Assembly (NCBI GenBank): GCA_040754455.1
Contig: JBFMCP010000042.1
Coordinates: forward strand, 1-23,415
DNA: 23,415 nucleotides
Direction: 5' to 3'
Origin: Nitrospirota bacterium
GTDB lineage: Bacteria; Nitrospirota; Thermodesulfovibrionia; Thermodesulfovibrionales; Dissulfurispiraceae
Positions 1,936 to 8,844 of this stretch are shown piece by piece. The translations under genes and the position numbers were made by a program. The stretch's first letter is position 1. Every line of letters starts with the position of its first letter. The notes beneath the pieces were generated by a model that was not told where the DNA came from, did not search any database, and saw nothing but the letters and a program-made list of their open reading frames with translations.

Positions 1936-2412
1936 ATGAAAGAAACCTTTGATCAGATCATCACAAAGTACAGGGATACCGGAGGCAATGTTATTTTCCT
2001 GCTCCAGGAGACTCAGGATGCACTGGGGTATATCCCCGAAGAGGCGATTAACTACTTTTCAGAGGAGCTCGATATCCCCGCCAGCCGCTTCTACGGAGTC
2101 GTCACCTTCTACTCGCAGTTCCATCTGAAACCAAGGGGCAAGAACGTCATTTCGGTCTGTTGCGGAACCGCCTGTCATGTCAAGGGCGGATCCAAGATAG
2201 CCGAGCGGGTCCAGAGGGACCTCGGCCTTGCCGCTGACGGAGAAACGACCGAAGACGGACAATTCACCTTTGAGGTCGTGCGGTGTGTCGGGGCCTGCAG
2301 CATCGCCCCTGTGGTATTGGTGAATAACAAGGCCTATGCCGAAATGACTGCCGACGGCACGTCAAAGCTCATCAAACAACTGAAAAAAGAGGGGCCAGAT
2401 GCAGCAAACTGA
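1936..2412 (+). CDS. nuoE: NuoE/HydC-like [2Fe-2S] subunit (gamma) of an NAD(P)-linked formate dehydrogenase complex
   Basis: 'GVVTFYSQF...VCCGTACHVKGG...VRCVGACSIAP' thioredoxin-like [2Fe-2S] motif. GAGGA RBS. Overlaps the next gene. The symbol denotes homology, not complex I membership. Confidence 0.92.
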   Translation: MKETFDQIITKYRDTGGNVIFLLQETQDALGYIPEEAINYFSEELDIPASRFYGVVTFYSQFHLKPRGKNVISVCCGTACHVKGGSKIAERVQRDLGLAADGETTEDGQFTFEVVRCVGACSIAPVVLVNNKAYAEMTADGTSKLIKQLKKEGPDAAN

Positions 2413-4219
2413 TGTCGAATATAAGGCACAAAATGATGATGGAAAGAAAAAGGTCGTCGTAAGGGTCTGTATAGGTACGGGTGGCCTTGCTGCCGGAGGC
2501 AAGGAGGTCATCCAGGCGTTCAAGAAGGCAATTACCGATTTCTGCGTTGATATCGATCTCGATTTCACCTGCCATTACCAAAAGGTAGGTTGCCGCGGTT
2601 TCTGCGCGCGGGACGTTCTCGTCGATGTTGTTGATAACAATACAAGTGTTACCTACCAGGGCATAAAGCCTGATAATGCGTACAGGATCGTCAAGGAGCA
2701 TCTAATAGAGGGCAAGCCGATTACCGAGTGGCTTATCGACGACTCATACTATGCCTTTCATTCCAAACAGCACAAGGTACTCCTCAAGGATTGCGGCTCC
2801 ATAGACCCCGAAAACATCCATGCGTACATCGGTGTCGGAGGGTATGAAGGAATAAAGAAGATCCTGGCAGGAATGACCCCCGAGGATGTGATCGCCGAGA
2901 TCAAGGCATCGGGCATCCGCGGCAGGGGGGGCGCCGGTTTTCCGACAGGAGTGAAATGGGAAGCCTGCCGTAAGGCCCCGGGCGAGAAAAAGTACATCGT
3001 GTGCAATGCCGACGAAGGCGATCCGGGTGCATTCATGGACCGGTCGATCATTGAGGGCAACCCTCATTCGGTCATCGAGGGAATGATGATCGCCGCCTAT
3101 GCGATCGGCGCGGACCTCGGATACGTCTACATCAGGGCTGAATACCCCGCTGCCGTCGATCGGCTGAAGCTCGCGATGGCGCAGGCCCATGAGTTGGGCT
3201 ATCTCGGGAAGAACATCTTCGGCTCGAATTTCAGCTTTGATCTCAAGATAAAACTCGGTGCAGGCGCCTTTGTCTGCGGTGAAGAGACCGCTCTCATCGC
3301 TTCGATCGAAGGAGAGCGGGGAATGCCGCGGGCAAAGCCACCGTTCCCGGTCCACAAAGGTCTCTGGGGCATGCCGACGGTTATCAACAACGTTGAGACC
3401 CTTTCGAATATACCGTACATCATACGGAACGGCGCTGCCTGGTTTGCCTCGATTGGCACCGAGAAGAGCAAAGGCACGAAGGTCTTCGCACTTACCGGCA
3501 AGGTGAAGAACACCGGCCTGATAGAGGTTCCGATGGGTATACGGCTCGGGGAGATCATCTATGATATCGGCGGCGGCTGCCTCGATGGCAAGCAGTTCAA
3601 GGCGGTCCAGACCGGCGGCCCTTCCGGCGGCTGCATTCCGGCCTCGTTGCTCGACACGCCGGTCGATTACGATTCCCTCGCTAAGGTCGGCTCGATCATC
3701 GGCTCAGGCGGCATGGTCGTCCTCGACGAGACGGACTGCATGGTCAATATCGCGAAGTTCTTCCTCGAATTCACCCAGGCCGAATCCTGCGGCAAATGCG
3801 TGCCCTGCAGGATCGGAACGAAAAGACTCTATGAGATACTCGACAGGATGACAAAAGGTCTTGGCAAAGAGGGAGATATCGAACTCCTCGAGAAGCTCTG
3901 CAATGACATCAAGGTAACATCCCTGTGCGGTCTCGGGCAGACCGCTCCCAACCCGATCCTCAGCACCCTTAAGTATTTCAGGGAGGAATACGAAGCTCAC
4001 ATAAAGGAAAAGAAATGTCCTGCGAAGGTATGCAAGGACCTTTTAACCTATAGCGTTATCGAAGAAAAATGCAAAGGCTGCGGCGCCTGTCTCAGGGCCT
4101 GCCCTGCGAAAGCGATCACCGGAGAAAAGAAGAAACCCCACAAAATAAACACCAGCATATGCATTAAGTGCGGCGCATGTTTCGATGTCTGCAAATTCAA
4201 TGCTGTGGGGAGGGAGTAA
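2399..4219 (+). CDS. nuoF: NuoF/HydB-like FMN/NAD(P)H-binding subunit (beta) with C-terminal 2x[4Fe-4S] domain
   Basis: Motifs GRGGAGFPTG, CNADEGDPGAFMDR, GAGAFVCGEETAL, GGPSGG and ESCGKCVPCRIG...SLCGLG. C-terminal CKGCGACLRACP and CIKCGACFDVC. The symbol denotes homology. Confidence 0.95.
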   Translation: MQQTDVEYKAQNDDGKKKVVVRVCIGTGGLAAGGKEVIQAFKKAITDFCVDIDLDFTCHYQKVGCRGFCARDVLVDVVDNNTSVTYQGIKPDNAYRIVKEHLIEGKPITEWLIDDSYYAFHSKQHKVLLKDCGSIDPENIHAYIGVGGYEGIKKILAGMTPEDVIAEIKASGIRGRGGAGFPTGVKWEACRKAPGEKKYIVCNADEGDPGAFMDRSIIEGNPHSVIEGMMIAAYAIGADLGYVYIRAEYPAAVDRLKLAMAQAHELGYLGKNIFGSNFSFDLKIKLGAGAFVCGEETALIASIEGERGMPRAKPPFPVHKGLWGMPTVINNVETLSNIPYIIRNGAAWFASIGTEKSKGTKVFALTGKVKNTGLIEVPMGIRLGEIIYDIGGGCLDGKQFKAVQTGGPSGGCIPASLLDTPVDYDSLAKVGSIIGSGGMVVLDETDCMVNIAKFFLEFTQAESCGKCVPCRIGTKRLYEILDRMTKGLGKEGDIELLEKLCNDIKVTSLCGLGQTAPNPILSTLKYFREEYEAHIKEKKCPAKVCKDLLTYSVIEEKCKGCGACLRACPAKAITGEKKKPHKINTSICIKCGACFDVCKFNAVGRE

Positions 4220-4221
4220 TT

Positions 4222-6921
4222 ATGGTAAAGGTAACAATAGACGGAAAGACAATAGAGGTTTCTGAAGAGATGACGGTCCTTGAGGCAGCGAGGATGGCGG
4301 GAATAGAGATACCTACGCTCTGCCATCACCCGAAACTCACTCCTTTCGGCGGCTGCCGGCTCTGCATTGTCGAGATCAAAAGCATTCCGAGGCCGGTGAC
4401 CTCCTGCACAACCCCGGTGAGCGACGGGATGGAAGTGACGACTTCGAACCCGAACATCGAAAACCTGAGAAAGACCGTCCTGGAGTTGATACTCTCCGAT
4501 CACCCGAACGACTGCATGGTCTGCGAGCGGGCCGGCGACTGCACGCTCCAGGAAATGGCATACCAGTATGGCATCAGGGAGAACAGGCTCGCCGGTGAAA
4601 GAAGGGTCTACACGAAGAGGGACGGAAACCCCTTTATCGAGAGGGACCTCGAAAAGTGCATCATGTGCGGCAGATGTGTGAAGGTCTGCAACGAGGTCCA
4701 GGGTGTCCAAGCGATCGACTTCGGTTACCGCGGCTTCAAAGCCAAGATATGCACTGCATATGAGAAAGACCTTAACTGTGAATTTTGCGGCCAGTGCGTT
4801 TCGGTATGCCCCACGGGAGCACTTACCGGCAAGATGTGGTCATTAAAGGGACGTCAAAAGGGCGTGAAAGAGGTCGACACCGTCTGCTCTTACTGCGGCA
4901 CCGGCTGCAATATCACGCTCCATGTGAAGAACAATGAAGTCGTGAGGGTCTCGTCCAAAGAGGACACCTGGAACGAGGGCTGGCTCTGCGTCAAGGGCAG
5001 GTTCGGCTACCAGTTCATAGGCAGCCCCGACCGCCTGAAAAAACCATTGATCAGAGTTGCACCGAAAGATGCTCCGACATCCGGCGCTCAACGTTCGACG
5101 CTTTTCAAAGAGGTCTCCTGGAACGAGGCGCTCGATTATGTTGCAGCGAAGATAAAGGAGATAAAGGCCGCTCACGGCGCCGATGCCATCGGCGGACTCT
5201 CATCAGCGCGCTGCACCAATGAAGAGAACTACGCATTCCAGAAAATGATCCGCGCCGCAGTGGGGACGAACAACGTCGACCACTGCGCCCGGCTTTGACA
5301 CGCGCCCACGGTAGCCAGTCTGGCTGCCATATTCGGTTCTGGCGCAATGACCAACTCCATACAGGAGATCGAGGGGATGGAGGTCATCTTCATCATCGGC
5401 TCGAATACCAAGGAGTCGCACCCGGTCATCGCCAACAGGATGATCAAGGCATATCGCAAAGGCGCGAAGATCATCGTTGCCGATCCGCGAAAGGTGCCGA
5501 TGGTGCGCTTTGCCGAGCACTTCCTCAACCTGAAGCCGGGCACTGATATCGCCCTGCTCAACGGCATGGCCCATATTATAATTAAAGAGGGGCTCTACAA
5601 TAAAGAATTCATTAACGAGAAAACCGAGGGCTTTGAGGAATTCAAGAGGTCGGTCGAAGAGTACACTCCTGAAAAGGTGGAGCAGATCACCGGCGTTCCC
5701 AAGGACGAGCTGATCAAGGCTGCGCGGCTCTACGGCGGTTCGCGGAAGGCGGGCATCTTCTACACCATGGGAATCACCCAGCACACCTGCGGCACCAATA
5801 ACGTAGCTGCTGTCGCCAATCTGGTGATGCTCACTGGCAATATCGGCAGAGAGTCCACCGGCATCAACCCGCTCAGGGGACAGAATAATGTCCAGGGCGC
5901 CTCTGATGCAGGCTGTCTCGCCGCTACCTATCCTGGATACCAGAAGGTCGACCTTCCGGAAGTGAAGGACAAATTCGAGAAGGCCTGGGGCGTGCCCCTC
6001 TCCGCAAAGGTGGGGATGACTGCAACCGAGATGATTCCCGCTGCACTCGAAGGAAAAGTCAAAGCGCTCTACATAATGGGAGAAAACCCGGTCATCACCG
6101 ATCCCAACACCCATCACACGGTCGAAGCGTTGAAGAAGCTCGACTTCCTGGTAGTGCAGGACATCTTTATGACCGAGACTGCTGCATTGGCAGATGTGGT
6201 GCTGCCCTCTACCTGCTTTGCCGAGAAAGAAGGCACCTTCAGCAACACGGAGCGAAAGGTCCAGCGGGTGAGAAAGGCGGTCGATGCACCCGGCGAGGCG
6301 CGGGCCGACCTGGACATCATCATGGATGTCTCGAAGAGACTAGGATATGAAATGAGCTACAAGTCTCCTGAAGATGTGCTGATCGAGTTCGGCCAGGTAT
6401 GGCCCAATCTTGCGGGGATCACCTACCAGCGCCTCGAAAAGGGAGGTATCCAGTGGCCGTGCCCGGACGAGGATCATCCGGGGACGCCTTATCTCTACAA
6501 GACGGGGTTCCCGAAGGGCAAAGTCAAATTCTCAACCGTCGAGTATACTCCTCCTGCCGAGACCACGGATGAAGAGTTCCCCTTCATCCTCACGACAGGA
6601 AGGAACCTCTACCAGTACCACTCCGGCTCGATGACAAGGAGGGTGCAGCCCATCGAGGCGCACGCCGGAGAGCCGTATGTCGAGCTCAATCCCGCAGACG
6701 GAAAGAGGCTGAACATCAGCAACGGCGAGCGGATTACCGTTGCCTCGCGGCGCGGGAGTATCAAGATAAAGGCGAAGCTCACCCCGAAGGTCCCGGCAGG
6801 CACGATCTTTATCCCGATGCACTACAGCGAAGCTGCGGCGAATGTGATCACGAACGACGCGCTCGATGCTCAGGTGAAGATCCCCGAATTCAAGGTCTGC
6901 GCAGCGAAGATAACAAAATAA
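4222..6921 (+). CDS. fdhF: Selenocysteine-containing formate dehydrogenase alpha subunit (Mo/W-bis-PGD), 899 aa, Sec at residue 359
   Basis: ORFs 4168-5298 and 5347-6921 are in the same frame and joined by TGA (5296-5298) in 'DHCARL-U-HAPTVASL...GSGAMTN', the FDH Cys/Sec-His site. The N-terminus has NuoG-like [2Fe-2S], HxxxCxxCxxxxxC, two ferredoxin-type [4Fe-4S] and CSYCGTGC...LCVKG motifs. Also PLRGQNNVQG and a C-terminal IPEFK. ATG 4222 follows a GGGAG RBS. No Tat signal. Confidence 0.95.
5310..5328 (+). promoter_or_regulatory. Bacterial SECIS element (selenocysteine insertion hairpin)
   Basis: GGTAGCC-AGTCT-GGCTGCC stem-loop with G in the apical loop, starting after an 11-nt spacer 3' of the UGA. 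This is the same spacing as the E. coli fdhF SECIS. Confidence 0.85.
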
Positions 6922-6932
6922 CGTTCAGGTCT

Positions 6933-6979
6933 GAACACAAAAAGGGCAGTGCCTTTTGAGCGCTGCCCTTTTTGTGTTC
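6933..6979. terminator. Bidirectional intrinsic terminator between the convergent fdh and dapF-like genes
   Basis: GAACACAAAAAGGGCAGTGC-loop-GCGCTGCCCTTTTTGTGTTC, a 20-bp inverted repeat with an A-tract and a T-tract flanking the GC core. Confidence 0.9.
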
Positions 6980-6994
6980 GCCGGGCGATCGTTG

Positions 6995-8107
6995 CTAAAT
7001 AAACATCAATCCTGCTTTATATTTGTTATCTGCCACCGTGCTCCACATGACCACGGCGGTCCTGAGCGGCAAGGTGCTTTCTTTCTTTTTGAAGACAACG
7101 ACGTCTCCCATTTTCAGTTCCTGATCGGTAATAATGGCGACTCCCGATTCGCTGATATCGATGCAGATGCATGAATATACCGCGCCCCTCGGTTCGCCCT
7201 TCTTTGAAAATTCCAGCGTAGCCTTGCAGACCTTACGCTGGTGCCTTCTGCACTCTCTTCTCTTTTCTTCAAGGTGCATCATCCTGCCTTCAAAGACCTC
7301 CACCGCAGGACCGGTTATATAGACGTGATCATTATGCGGCCACTCGATCACCACTTCTCCCCCTGAAAAGGATACCGTAACTTTCCGCCCCGTGAGTCCC
7401 TTCAGAATGGCGGCCACGCCTGCAGCAGCAGCCCCGGTACTGCACGCCATCGTTTCGCCGACTCCCTTTCCCCAGAACCTCATCATCAGCTCTTGTTTGC
7501 TCTTCACATTGACGAAGGCGATATCGGTCTTTTCCGGAAAGAGCGGGTGATTTTCAATAGCAGGCCCGTAGGCGGATAACAGGAACTCAGCGAGATCATC
7601 CTTCAGGAAAACTACTGCCTGCGGGCCGCCGAGGGCAAGGCAGGTCACCCTGAAGTCGGTATTTCCGGCCTGGATCGGATAATCGATAATAGGTCTTTTT
7701 AATTTAAGGTTGACAGGAATCTTATCGGCATCGAAGACCGGCTCTCCCATATCCACTCTTACCATATCGCCGATACGCTCGACATTCACCAGGGCGGCAA
7801 GCGTGTCGATCTTGAGAAGCCCTTTGTCCGAGATCCCCTTGTTCCAGATATACTTGGCAAGACAGATAATCCCGTTGCCGCACATCCCGACCTCTTTGCC
7901 CCCGCTGTTGAAGATTTTCAGCCTGAAGTCAGCGTCAAGCGAATTGTAGAGCAGCAAAAGCTGGTCAGCGCCGATCCCCGACCGCCGGTCGCAAAGCCGC
8001 ACGGCAAGGGAATTGAGATTAAAGTATTCGGCAATATCGAATGCTCTACAATCGAGAATGACAAAATCATTCCGGTTGCACTGCATTTTGGTGAAATTCA
8101 GCTCCAT
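6995..8107 (-). CDS. dapF: Diaminopimelate epimerase (DapF)-fold protein with degenerate substrate pocket, fused to a C-terminal PilZ domain
   Basis: Residues ~1-277 are DapF-like: FTKM..NDF, GIGADQ, MCGNG (C76), VDMGEP, ETMACSTG (C222), TGPAVEVFEG. Residues ~280-370 are PilZ-like: RRHQR (RxxxR) and DISESG (D/NxSxxG), ending in beta strands 'AVVMWS...YKAGLMF'. The symbol denotes the fold; canonical activity is doubtful. Confidence 0.85.
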   Translation of the reverse strand: MELNFTKMQCNRNDFVILDCRAFDIAEYFNLNSLAVRLCDRRSGIGADQLLLLYNSLDADFRLKIFNSGGKEVGMCGNGIICLAKYIWNKGISDKGLLKIDTLAALVNVERIGDMVRVDMGEPVFDADKIPVNLKLKRPIIDYPIQAGNTDFRVTCLALGGPQAVVFLKDDLAEFLLSAYGPAIENHPLFPEKTDIAFVNVKSKQELMMRFWGKGVGETMACSTGAAAAGVAAILKGLTGRKVTVSFSGGEVVIEWPHNDHVYITGPAVEVFEGRMMHLEEKRRECRRHQRKVCKATLEFSKKGEPRGAVYSCICIDISESGVAIITDQELKMGDVVVFKKKESTLPLRTAVVMWSTVADNKYKAGLMFI

Positions 8108-8254
8108 AGTTTCATCGGGTTGATACGTTCAAAAGATACGCCCGCCACAAGCAGGCGCTCTATGATAATGCAAAGAGAGGAATGAGAGCAAACCTGTGGG
8201 ATGCACCTTGTGCACATTGTGCTCTGGCAATAAGGGAGGGTGAGAGGTATACAG

Positions 8255-8283
8255 TTGAGATAAAAGGGGAATACCGGTATTAT
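8255..8283 (+). promoter_or_regulatory. Candidate sigma70 promoter for the hpt-queD-pmbA-acd run
   Basis: TTGAGA (8255-8260), 17 nt spacer, TATTAT (8278-8283). An overlapping TATAAT lies at 8283-8288. Confidence 0.4.
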
Positions 8284-8322
8284 ATAATACTGTTGTTATT
8301 AGCACGTTCCGGGAGGAAGTTG

Positions 8323-8844
8323 ATGATTATAGGCAAGCCGCTATTCACCACCGAGCAGATCAACGATAAGGTTATGGAGCTGGCAGAGCGGATATCGCGG
8401 GATTACGCGGGCAAGGAGGTGCTTGCCGTCGGCGTTCTGAAAGGCTCGTTCATGTTCTTTGCCGACCTTATCAGGGCACTGAGGATTCCTGTCTCCGTCG
8501 ATTTCATCATTTCCTCGAGCTATGTAAAAACCGACTCTTCCGGCAAGACTAGCATCTACTACGACGTACGGGAGAATATAAGGGGCAGAGACGTCCTGCT
8601 CATCGATGATATAATTGATACAGGGATATCGCTCAATATCATCCGCGAAAGCCTCTTGTCAAAGGGGCCCGCGAGCCTCAGGATATGCGTGCTCCTCGAT
8701 AAGGAGGAGCGCCGGGTCACCAGGGTGCCGGTCGATTATATCGGCTTCAGGATTCCAAACCAGTTCGTCGTCGGCTACGGCCTGGATTACGAGAACAAAT
8801 ACAGGAACCTGCCTTACATTGCTTTGTTCAAAAAAGAAAGATAA
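8323..8844 (+). CDS. hpt: Hypoxanthine phosphoribosyltransferase
   Basis: GVLKGSFMFFADL, PRPP-binding VLLIDDIIDTG, and FVVGYGLDY...YRNLPYI. Start moved to ATG 8323 after a GGAGG RBS; the ORF-track extension from 8182 is unlikely. Confidence 0.95.
   Translation: MIIGKPLFTTEQINDKVMELAERISRDYAGKEVLAVGVLKGSFMFFADLIRALRIPVSVDFIISSSYVKTDSSGKTSIYYDVRENIRGRDVLLIDDIIDTGISLNIIRESLLSKGPASLRICVLLDKEERRVTRVPVDYIGFRIPNQFVVGYGLDYENKYRNLPYIALFKKER

Follow-up and report, generated by a model that had tools for sequence, protein, structure and literature searches.

Cyclic di-GMP (c-di-GMP) acts through PilZ domains on motility, secretion and exopolysaccharide enzymes. Here we describe a bacterial gene in which a PilZ domain is joined to the fold of DapF, the diaminopimelate (DAP) epimerase. 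The gene lies on contig JBFMCP010000042.1 of a Nitrospirota bacterium (assembly GCA_040754455.1, family Dissulfurispiraceae), and by "the window" we mean the whole stretch of that contig that was analyzed, 23,415 nucleotides. According to the main text of a survey of PilZ proteins (10.1101/814665), the canonical domain consists of a barrel followed by a C-terminal helix, one of its signatures has the refined form [D/N]hSxxG, where h is hydrophobic, and two-domain PilZ proteins carry the other signature, RxxxR, within the inter-domain linker. The terms DapF and epimerase and the stem enzym- are absent from that main text; the supplements may list architectures.

Enzymes with the DapF fold can act on other substrates. 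One report (PMC8225329) describes PddB, a racemase of 2,4-diaminobutyrate (Dab), in which the equivalents of Asn64, Asn157, Asn190 and Arg209 are replaced, and the histidine racemase HisR had previously been annotated as DapF, as stated in PMC11602996. A reading of the window made without database searches, below called the sequence-only reading, had named no characterized DapF-PilZ fusion, and our literature search likewise found no report of a link between the two, the co-mentions of PilZ with DapF or diaminopimelate being incidental. The same search found no report of c-di-GMP acting via PilZ on an enzyme that makes amino acids or cell-wall precursors.

We favor, at a probability of roughly 0.45, the reading that the window gene is a duplicated, neofunctionalized copy of its lineage's DapF-PilZ and would encode a c-di-GMP-responsive racemase or epimerase with a changed substrate.

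Domain architecture and c-di-GMP motifs

The DNA confirmed a single uninterrupted open reading frame (ORF) of 370 amino acids (aa), and profile and structure searches bore out the DapF fold and PilZ tail that the sequence-only reading had seen in it. Its parts, in window coordinates, are:

6995..8107, minus strand: DapF-PilZ ORF, 370 uninterrupted codons plus stop, a DapF-fold domain and then a PilZ domain
7280..8107, minus strand: DapF-fold domain, residues 1-276 (TIGR00652 profile and Foldseek)
7250..7279, minus strand: inter-domain linker, residues 277-286, of low model confidence (predicted local distance difference test, pLDDT, 58 for the block 281-290)
7235..7249, minus strand: RxxxR motif, RRHQR, residues 287-291 (from the sequence; conserved in homologues)
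6998..7234, minus strand: PilZ six-stranded beta-barrel, residues 292-370 (AlphaFold2 models and Foldseek)
7142..7159, minus strand: [D/N]hSxxG motif, DISESG, residues 317-322 (from the sequence; conserved in homologues)

Residue numbers and nucleotide coordinates of RRHQR and DISESG agree with those of the sequence-only reading. Pfam matched the protein to DAP_epimerase (PF01678) in two stretches (E 1.8e-42) and to PilZ (PF07238) over residues 287-369 (E 3.4e-7; 31.0 bits, with the gathering cut-off at 22.5), and the 95-aa tail on its own gave a PilZ match of 34.7 bits (E 2.3e-8). Residues 4-277 matched the NCBIfam DapF equivalog TIGR00652 at 218.3 bits, against a cut-off of 114.65.

A full-length AlphaFold2 model (mean pLDDT 90.3, predicted TM score [pTM] 0.73) was weak in the linker. 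When it was searched with Foldseek, listed ranks 1-26 were all structures of DapF or of DcsC, the best being 9mro (E 1.1e-30). Since this search gave only DapF-fold matches, the PilZ part was modeled and searched separately (residues 279-370, pLDDT 84.8). Both models contain six strands, which run from 292 to 369 in the full-length one. The first 38 listed ranks for the separate model were almost all c-di-GMP-binding PilZ domains, with TM scores by query of 0.56-0.72; the structures matched were those of PP4397, BcsA, VCA0042, PA0012, YcgR, MotI, MrkH, Alg44, MapZ and PlzA. A complex prediction with DapF residues 1-276, PilZ residues 277-370 and two c-di-GMP molecules scored 0.00; it was run without controls and has no bearing either way.

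All 35 fused homologues share R287, R291, D317, S319 and G322, the residues expected to contact c-di-GMP. Machinery for the second messenger is present in the genome, with 24 GGDEF and 9 PilZ matches.

Substrate pocket, paralogy and selection

The genome holds two TIGR00652 matches. The better one, on contig C1, scores 306.2 bits, and the window copy lies about 87 bits lower. The contig C1 copy is a 370-aa DapF-PilZ whose gene is flanked by lysA (417 aa) and dapA (291 aa), and it retains every canonical DapF motif. The two copies are 59% identical without gaps (BLASTP).

We read the pocket residues from an alignment with Anabaena DapF (9mro) and took their roles from PMC12039745. The homologue set comprised the best 120 of 3781 sequences with E at most 0.001; conservation was measured in 119 other homologues, and a column was called near-invariant when at least 95% conserved. 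The window copy and P0001, its twin at 97% identity, deviate at 20 of 96 near-invariant columns. Positions retained or changed in the pocket are:

7880..7882, minus strand: Cys76, first catalytic Cys, retained (Anabaena Cys75; invariant column)
7442..7444, minus strand: Cys222, second catalytic Cys, retained (9mro alignment; invariant column)
7886..7888, minus strand: Gly74 in place of Anabaena Glu73 (Glu in 116 of 119 other homologues)
7619..7627, minus strand: Gly161-Pro162-Gln163 in place of the Asn-Pro-His motif (9mro alignment and conserved columns)
7523..7525, minus strand: Asp195 in place of Anabaena Asn197 (9mro alignment and conserved columns)
7466..7471, minus strand: Gly213-Lys214 in place of Anabaena Glu215/Arg216 (9mro alignment and conserved columns)

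In the Anabaena enzyme, as PMC12039745 describes it, Asn164 and Asn197 are ligands of the distal carboxylate of DAP, Asn66 is a ligand of carboxylate and amine, and Glu215 is an amine ligand; Arg216 makes a carboxylate salt bridge, recognizes the distal L-centre and is itself salt-bridged by Glu73. Asn164 corresponds to G161 of the window protein. Three of the four distal-carboxylate ligands are lost, with Asn66 alone kept, as N67. Residues of the proximal site are kept, namely Asn13 (N13) and the CGNG motif. Q163 stands at the position equivalent to His159 of Haemophilus influenzae DapF, a numbering that we infer from the N-P-H motif; His is found there in all 119 other homologues, and His159 is listed as catalytic in PMC3581254. 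Across the 119, every other fused form included, conservation is 97-100% at the changed ligand positions, at that of the Glu73 partner and at that of His159. Directly after Cys222 the window protein has Ser223, where all 119 have Gly. Gly213 is strain-specific: metagenome variants X6 and X9 carry GAA (Glu) at that codon.

Since the distal pocket appears to have been rebuilt, meso- or LL-DAP is probably no longer the preferred substrate. If PddB, the Dab racemase, is taken as a guide, a reasonable guess would be a diamino or basic amino acid that lacks the distal carboxylate.

A tree of 47 rows built from the DapF columns alone places the window copy and P0001, together with the contig C1 copy, in a starred clade (99/97) whose 21 rows include 18 fused forms; relationships within this clade form a four-way polytomy. 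The stem branch of the window lineage measures 0.63 changes per site, compared with 0.17 for the contig C1 copy. Relative-rate counts with 14 outgroups gave 60.4 lineage-specific changes in the DapF half of the window copy and 17.9 in that of the contig C1 copy, a 3.4-fold difference (p 2.5e-5 with P0003). For the PilZ half the counts were 10.6 and 7.7, a 1.4-fold difference that is not significant. The test assumes that the outgroups lie outside both copies, and the polytomy weakens it in its absolute form, which counts against our proposal; the contrast between the DapF and PilZ halves is independent of the polytomy.

Metagenome contigs provided variants of the gene. The stretch that holds it is present in contigs of eight studies (groundwater, biofilm, hot spring and soil), two samples of which may be the source itself. 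The sequence-only reading had asked for the junction between the domains to be confirmed; it is no assembly artefact, as it is bridged by contigs of three of the four runs examined that come from other studies than the likely source. The bridging contigs are X6 (6900-8208), X4 (6900-7618) and X9 (7075-7311), and the fourth, X5 (7248-7521), extends only to the RxxxR motif. The window ORF differs from the X6 variant by 16 synonymous and 10 non-synonymous changes, for which a simple Nei-Gojobori count without multiple-hit correction gives a ratio of non-synonymous to synonymous differences per site (pN/pS) of 0.18 for the whole ORF and about 0.18 for each half. The X9 pieces add 6 synonymous and 2 non-synonymous changes, and X5 one of each. 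The sole indel seen among the metagenome variants is 9 nucleotides (nt) long and in frame; it is a deletion at 7181-7189 in the hot-spring contig X4 that removes three codons in the loop between PilZ strands 1 and 2. Thus, the window paralogue is maintained by purifying selection.

The sequence-only reading had gone on to suggest that the gene might connect c-di-GMP to peptidoglycan or D-amino-acid metabolism. Its core stands, in that the fusion is real and conserved and both c-di-GMP motifs are intact. As a link to peptidoglycan this particular gene is unlikely, because it is a diverged second copy that has lost three of four distal-carboxylate DAP ligands, the Glu partner and the His159 equivalent, and because the copy between lysA and dapA, also fused to PilZ, lies on another contig.

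dapF and pilZ in relatives, and the gene's surroundings

Among the best 120 homologues, 34 have lengths of 358-410 aa and align with the window protein over its full length at 47-97% identity. RxxxR followed by [D/N]xSxxG occurs in 35/35 forms of at least 350 aa, the window protein counted, and in 0/86 shorter ones. When 1.84 billion cluster representatives were searched with a profile built from the 35 fused proteins, P0015 alone among the best 150 matches extended to position 370, and the other 149 ended at about 275-291; with one full-length representative, the fusion collapses into a single 50%-identity cluster. Distant, independent DapF-PilZ fusions were not found among these best 150 matches, below which fusions with a weaker DapF part would rank. 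Several DapF proteins of the representative library have long N-terminal extensions that are unrelated fusions (P0128, P0186, P0196, P0258, the 687-aa P0213 and the 836-aa P0245), with the DapF part at 407-686, 559-835 and so on.

Among 41 relatives searched, uninterrupted full-length matches were found in G000 (twice), G006, G005, G019, G008 and G007, and a 301-genome sample of the phylum added G232 and G202. Full-length fused matches among species-representative genomes were confined to the window's own Nitrospirota family, and database names of close unfused relatives point to Nitrospirota, Thermodesulfovibrionales and Dissulfurispiraceae. The fusion is therefore no one-off but characterizes a single lineage, in which naturally split forms occur too. 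Databases label the fused proteins plainly as 'diaminopimelate epimerase', a label that probably misdescribes the window gene.

We surveyed the operon in 18 loci of relatives. dapA lies downstream of dapF in 18/18 and lysA upstream in 16/18. The state of pilZ varies:

5 of 18 loci: pilZ fused to dapF (G006, G005, G019, G008, G007)
8 of 18 loci: a pilZ stretch directly after dapF, 6 intact and 2 degenerate
5 of 18 loci: pilZ absent between dapF and dapA (G001, G011, G022, G002, G014)

The intact adjacent genes are separate ORFs with recognizable motifs (G015, G195, G216, G226, G036, G021), and the other two are degenerate or frameshifted (G010, G016). A second, stand-alone pilZ is found between the fused dapF-pilZ and dapA in two loci, L007 (G008, about 1186-1410) and L008 (G007, about 1181-1435), so that these operons contain two PilZ modules each. 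On contig C1 of G000, two more matches to the PilZ domain are located within about 5-10 kb of the lysA-dapF(PilZ)-dapA operon, at 263582-263905 and 247792-248013. The DapF of the same-genus genome G001 (P0035, 324 aa) has no PilZ domain and ends in a 47-aa low-complexity tail (L009, 2335-2475). This tail is probably what remained after PilZ was lost; tblastn detected no PilZ remnant in that genome.

Fused, split and PilZ-less forms are interleaved on the tree, where the starred branches require at least six changes of the label 'fused'. This interleaving indicates that fusion, fission and loss were recurrent and that the partnership of dapF and pilZ is older than any single fusion. That a single lineage ties the two together in three states (fused, adjacent and lost) within its lysine/DAP operon is a classic signature of functional partnership, and the coupling is Rosetta-stone-type evidence that PilZ acts on or with DapF.

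The window gene itself stands apart from such an operon, as neither lysA nor dapA is present in the neighborhood examined. It faces a convergent ORF for a molybdopterin oxidoreductase (5347..6921, plus strand) and, as the sequence-only reading had it, is divergent from an hpt-like phosphoribosyltransferase ORF (8182..8844, plus strand) and closed by a terminator, which we located by folding. Two hairpins flank the gene:

6935..6977, minus strand: terminator hairpin with flanking A-run and U-run, 3' of the stop codon and shared with the convergent gene
8138..8158, minus strand: terminator-like GC-rich hairpin with a T-run, about 30 nt ahead of the ATG within the 5' leader

The first folds at -31.8 kcal/mol (z -6.96), and none of 200 shuffled sequences folded equally well. 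It is missing from a simple terminator scan, and its long loop is probably the reason. The second has a z of only -1.94, and there is no upstream minus-strand gene there for it to terminate. Searches of Rfam at gathering thresholds found nothing in the window, nor, with E values up to 1 allowed, in the 5' leader (8090-8340), so that an upstream lysine or c-di-GMP riboswitch is not supported. No obvious Shine-Dalgarno sequence precedes the ATG, as read from the DNA, and the G+C content at third codon positions (GC3) is 0.63, compared with 0.66-0.74 in neighboring genes. We considered a foreign origin for the gene, which seems unlikely: the composition differs only mildly, and its tree position is within the lineage's own clade.

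Two neighbors merit mention. ORFs 4168..5298 and 5347..6921 (plus strand) share one frame and are parted by a TGA at 5296-5298 in the context '...CARL*HAPTV...', and Pfam splits a single molybdopterin oxidoreductase over the two; together (4168-6921) they are probably the alpha subunit of a selenocysteine-containing formate dehydrogenase. NuoE-like (1936..2412) and NuoF-like (2399..4219) genes precede it. The hpt-like ORF is 220 aa as called, with its Pfam match starting at residue 58 and a promoter-like site at 8255-8283; the true start is probably the internal ATG near 8323.

Candidate functions and comparison with known systems

As a neofunctionalized copy, the window protein would be a putative cofactor-independent, two-Cys amino-acid racemase or epimerase with a rebuilt distal substrate pocket. 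We predict that c-di-GMP binds through R287 and R291 of the linker and D317, S319 and G322 of the barrel. Binding may pull the barrel onto the N-domain of the DapF half, as in PilZ proteins with a linker RxxxR; the N-domain is the expected surface because RxxxR lies only about 10 residues past the last DapF strand. Docking of the barrel could then alter domain closure or dimerization and switch activity in either direction.

A number of observations weigh against this reading. The C-terminal alpha-helix of canonical PilZ domains is absent from the predicted structure, in which the chain stops one residue after strand 6, and the model has low confidence in the inter-domain geometry (pTM 0.73; linker pLDDT 58). 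The closest relative cluster of the paralogue among the best 120 homologues is P0001 alone (97% identity), which corresponds to a 3587-nt contig of a hot-spring run, and the paralogue was not found in G001, the sole same-genus genome searched. Several features of the pocket also recall the canonical enzyme: Lys214 keeps the positive charge of Arg216, the Asn66 equivalent is retained, as is the Gln that aligns with Gln44 of H. influenzae, and the Glu215 equivalent persists in other strains. The DapF equivalog cut-off is still passed, so residual DAP epimerase activity is possible. Together with the retention of both catalytic Cys, Asn13 and CGNG, and with Lys as a conservative swap for the key Arg, these features would suit a protein that is still a DAP epimerase, namely a second, c-di-GMP-regulated isozyme with altered kinetics that serves other conditions. 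We consider this somewhat unlikely, since the protein has changed at three of the four ligands of the distal carboxylate, at the Glu73 partner and at the position of His159, the 3.4-fold acceleration is confined to the catalytic half, and the gene lies outside the lysA-dapF-dapA operon, where an intact copy exists.

Loss of the His159 equivalent could instead mean that catalysis was lost, a further point against a working racemase. The protein would then be a pseudoenzyme that keeps the fold and serves as a c-di-GMP-dependent regulator or scaffold, for example in a heterodimer with the housekeeping DapF-PilZ or with another partner. PDB entries 6d13 and 6vck, titled as E. coli RppH-DapF complexes, are among the Foldseek matches; in such complexes DapF serves as a partner without acting as an enzyme. 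The window protein has lost a residue that is listed as catalytic (in this strain, the Glu208 equivalent as well), yet purifying selection persists and the PilZ half evolves at a normal rate. Both catalytic Cys and the residues of the reactive centre are nevertheless kept under selection, which a pure scaffold would not need, and the gene neighborhood indicates no partner; we regard a pseudoenzyme as unlikely. That the gene is a decaying duplicate or an assembly artefact without function is very improbable. The many lost conserved positions, the lack of an obvious Shine-Dalgarno sequence and the somewhat lower GC3 would fit decay, but the 370-codon frame is intact and gapless against its paralogue despite 41% divergence, the pN/pS is 0.18 with the sole indel in frame, and the same gene was assembled from metagenomes of several studies.

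The favored reading, a neofunctionalized DapF-PilZ, could be part of a wider scheme in which c-di-GMP directly gates the last steps of meso-DAP and lysine supply throughout the family, by way of a PilZ module that is fused to DapF or encoded beside it in a lysA-dapF-pilZ-dapA operon, with the window gene as an offshoot of that module and a gated racemase for another substrate, for example a basic amino acid that lacks the distal carboxylate (lysine, ornithine or Dab). This wider scheme is a long shot; if true, it would place D-amino-acid production under second-messenger control. What would be new in the favored reading is the pairing of PilZ with an output enzyme of a new class, together with a neofunctionalizing paralogue. 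The paralogue would serve as a natural experiment, with the sensor half kept and the catalytic pocket rebuilt.

Compared with known systems, the window protein shares the two-domain pseudo-symmetric fold of canonical DapF (H. influenzae 1bwz and 2gke, Anabaena 9mro, E. coli 4ijz), with Foldseek E values of 1e-30 to 1e-26 and TM scores by target of 0.85-0.92, as well as its two catalytic Cys, proximal-site Asn and CGNG. It differs from these enzymes in its added C-terminal PilZ domain, its altered distal-site ligands and the position of its gene outside a lysA/dapA operon. With the housekeeping DapF-PilZ proteins (the contig C1 copy, which is P0002, and P0003-P0034) it has the architecture and PilZ motifs in common; these proteins have every canonical active-site residue and the lysA-dapA position, whereas the window copy has neither. 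The DapF fold, two Cys and a rebuilt distal pocket recur in PddB, in the histidine racemases HisR/CntK and in DcsC (O-ureidoserine; 7vdy), which differ from the window protein in lacking a PilZ domain and in the substitutions they carry. As the 7vdy match is weaker for the window copy (E 1.5e-31) than for the contig C1 copy (E 5.7e-47), the window protein is no closer to these changed-substrate racemases than its paralogue is.

Among PilZ proteins, BcsA cellulose synthase, Alg44, VCA0042/PlzD and YcgR have the six-stranded barrel, RxxxR and [D/N]hSxxG that are found in the window protein, and structures of these proteins with bound c-di-GMP are the best matches of its PilZ part; the position of RxxxR in the inter-domain linker matches that of the two-domain PilZ receptors described in the main text of 10.1101/814665. 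The window protein differs from BcsA, Alg44, VCA0042/PlzD and YcgR in having a barrel without the C-terminal helix and, as its output domain, the fold of a soluble amino-acid epimerase.

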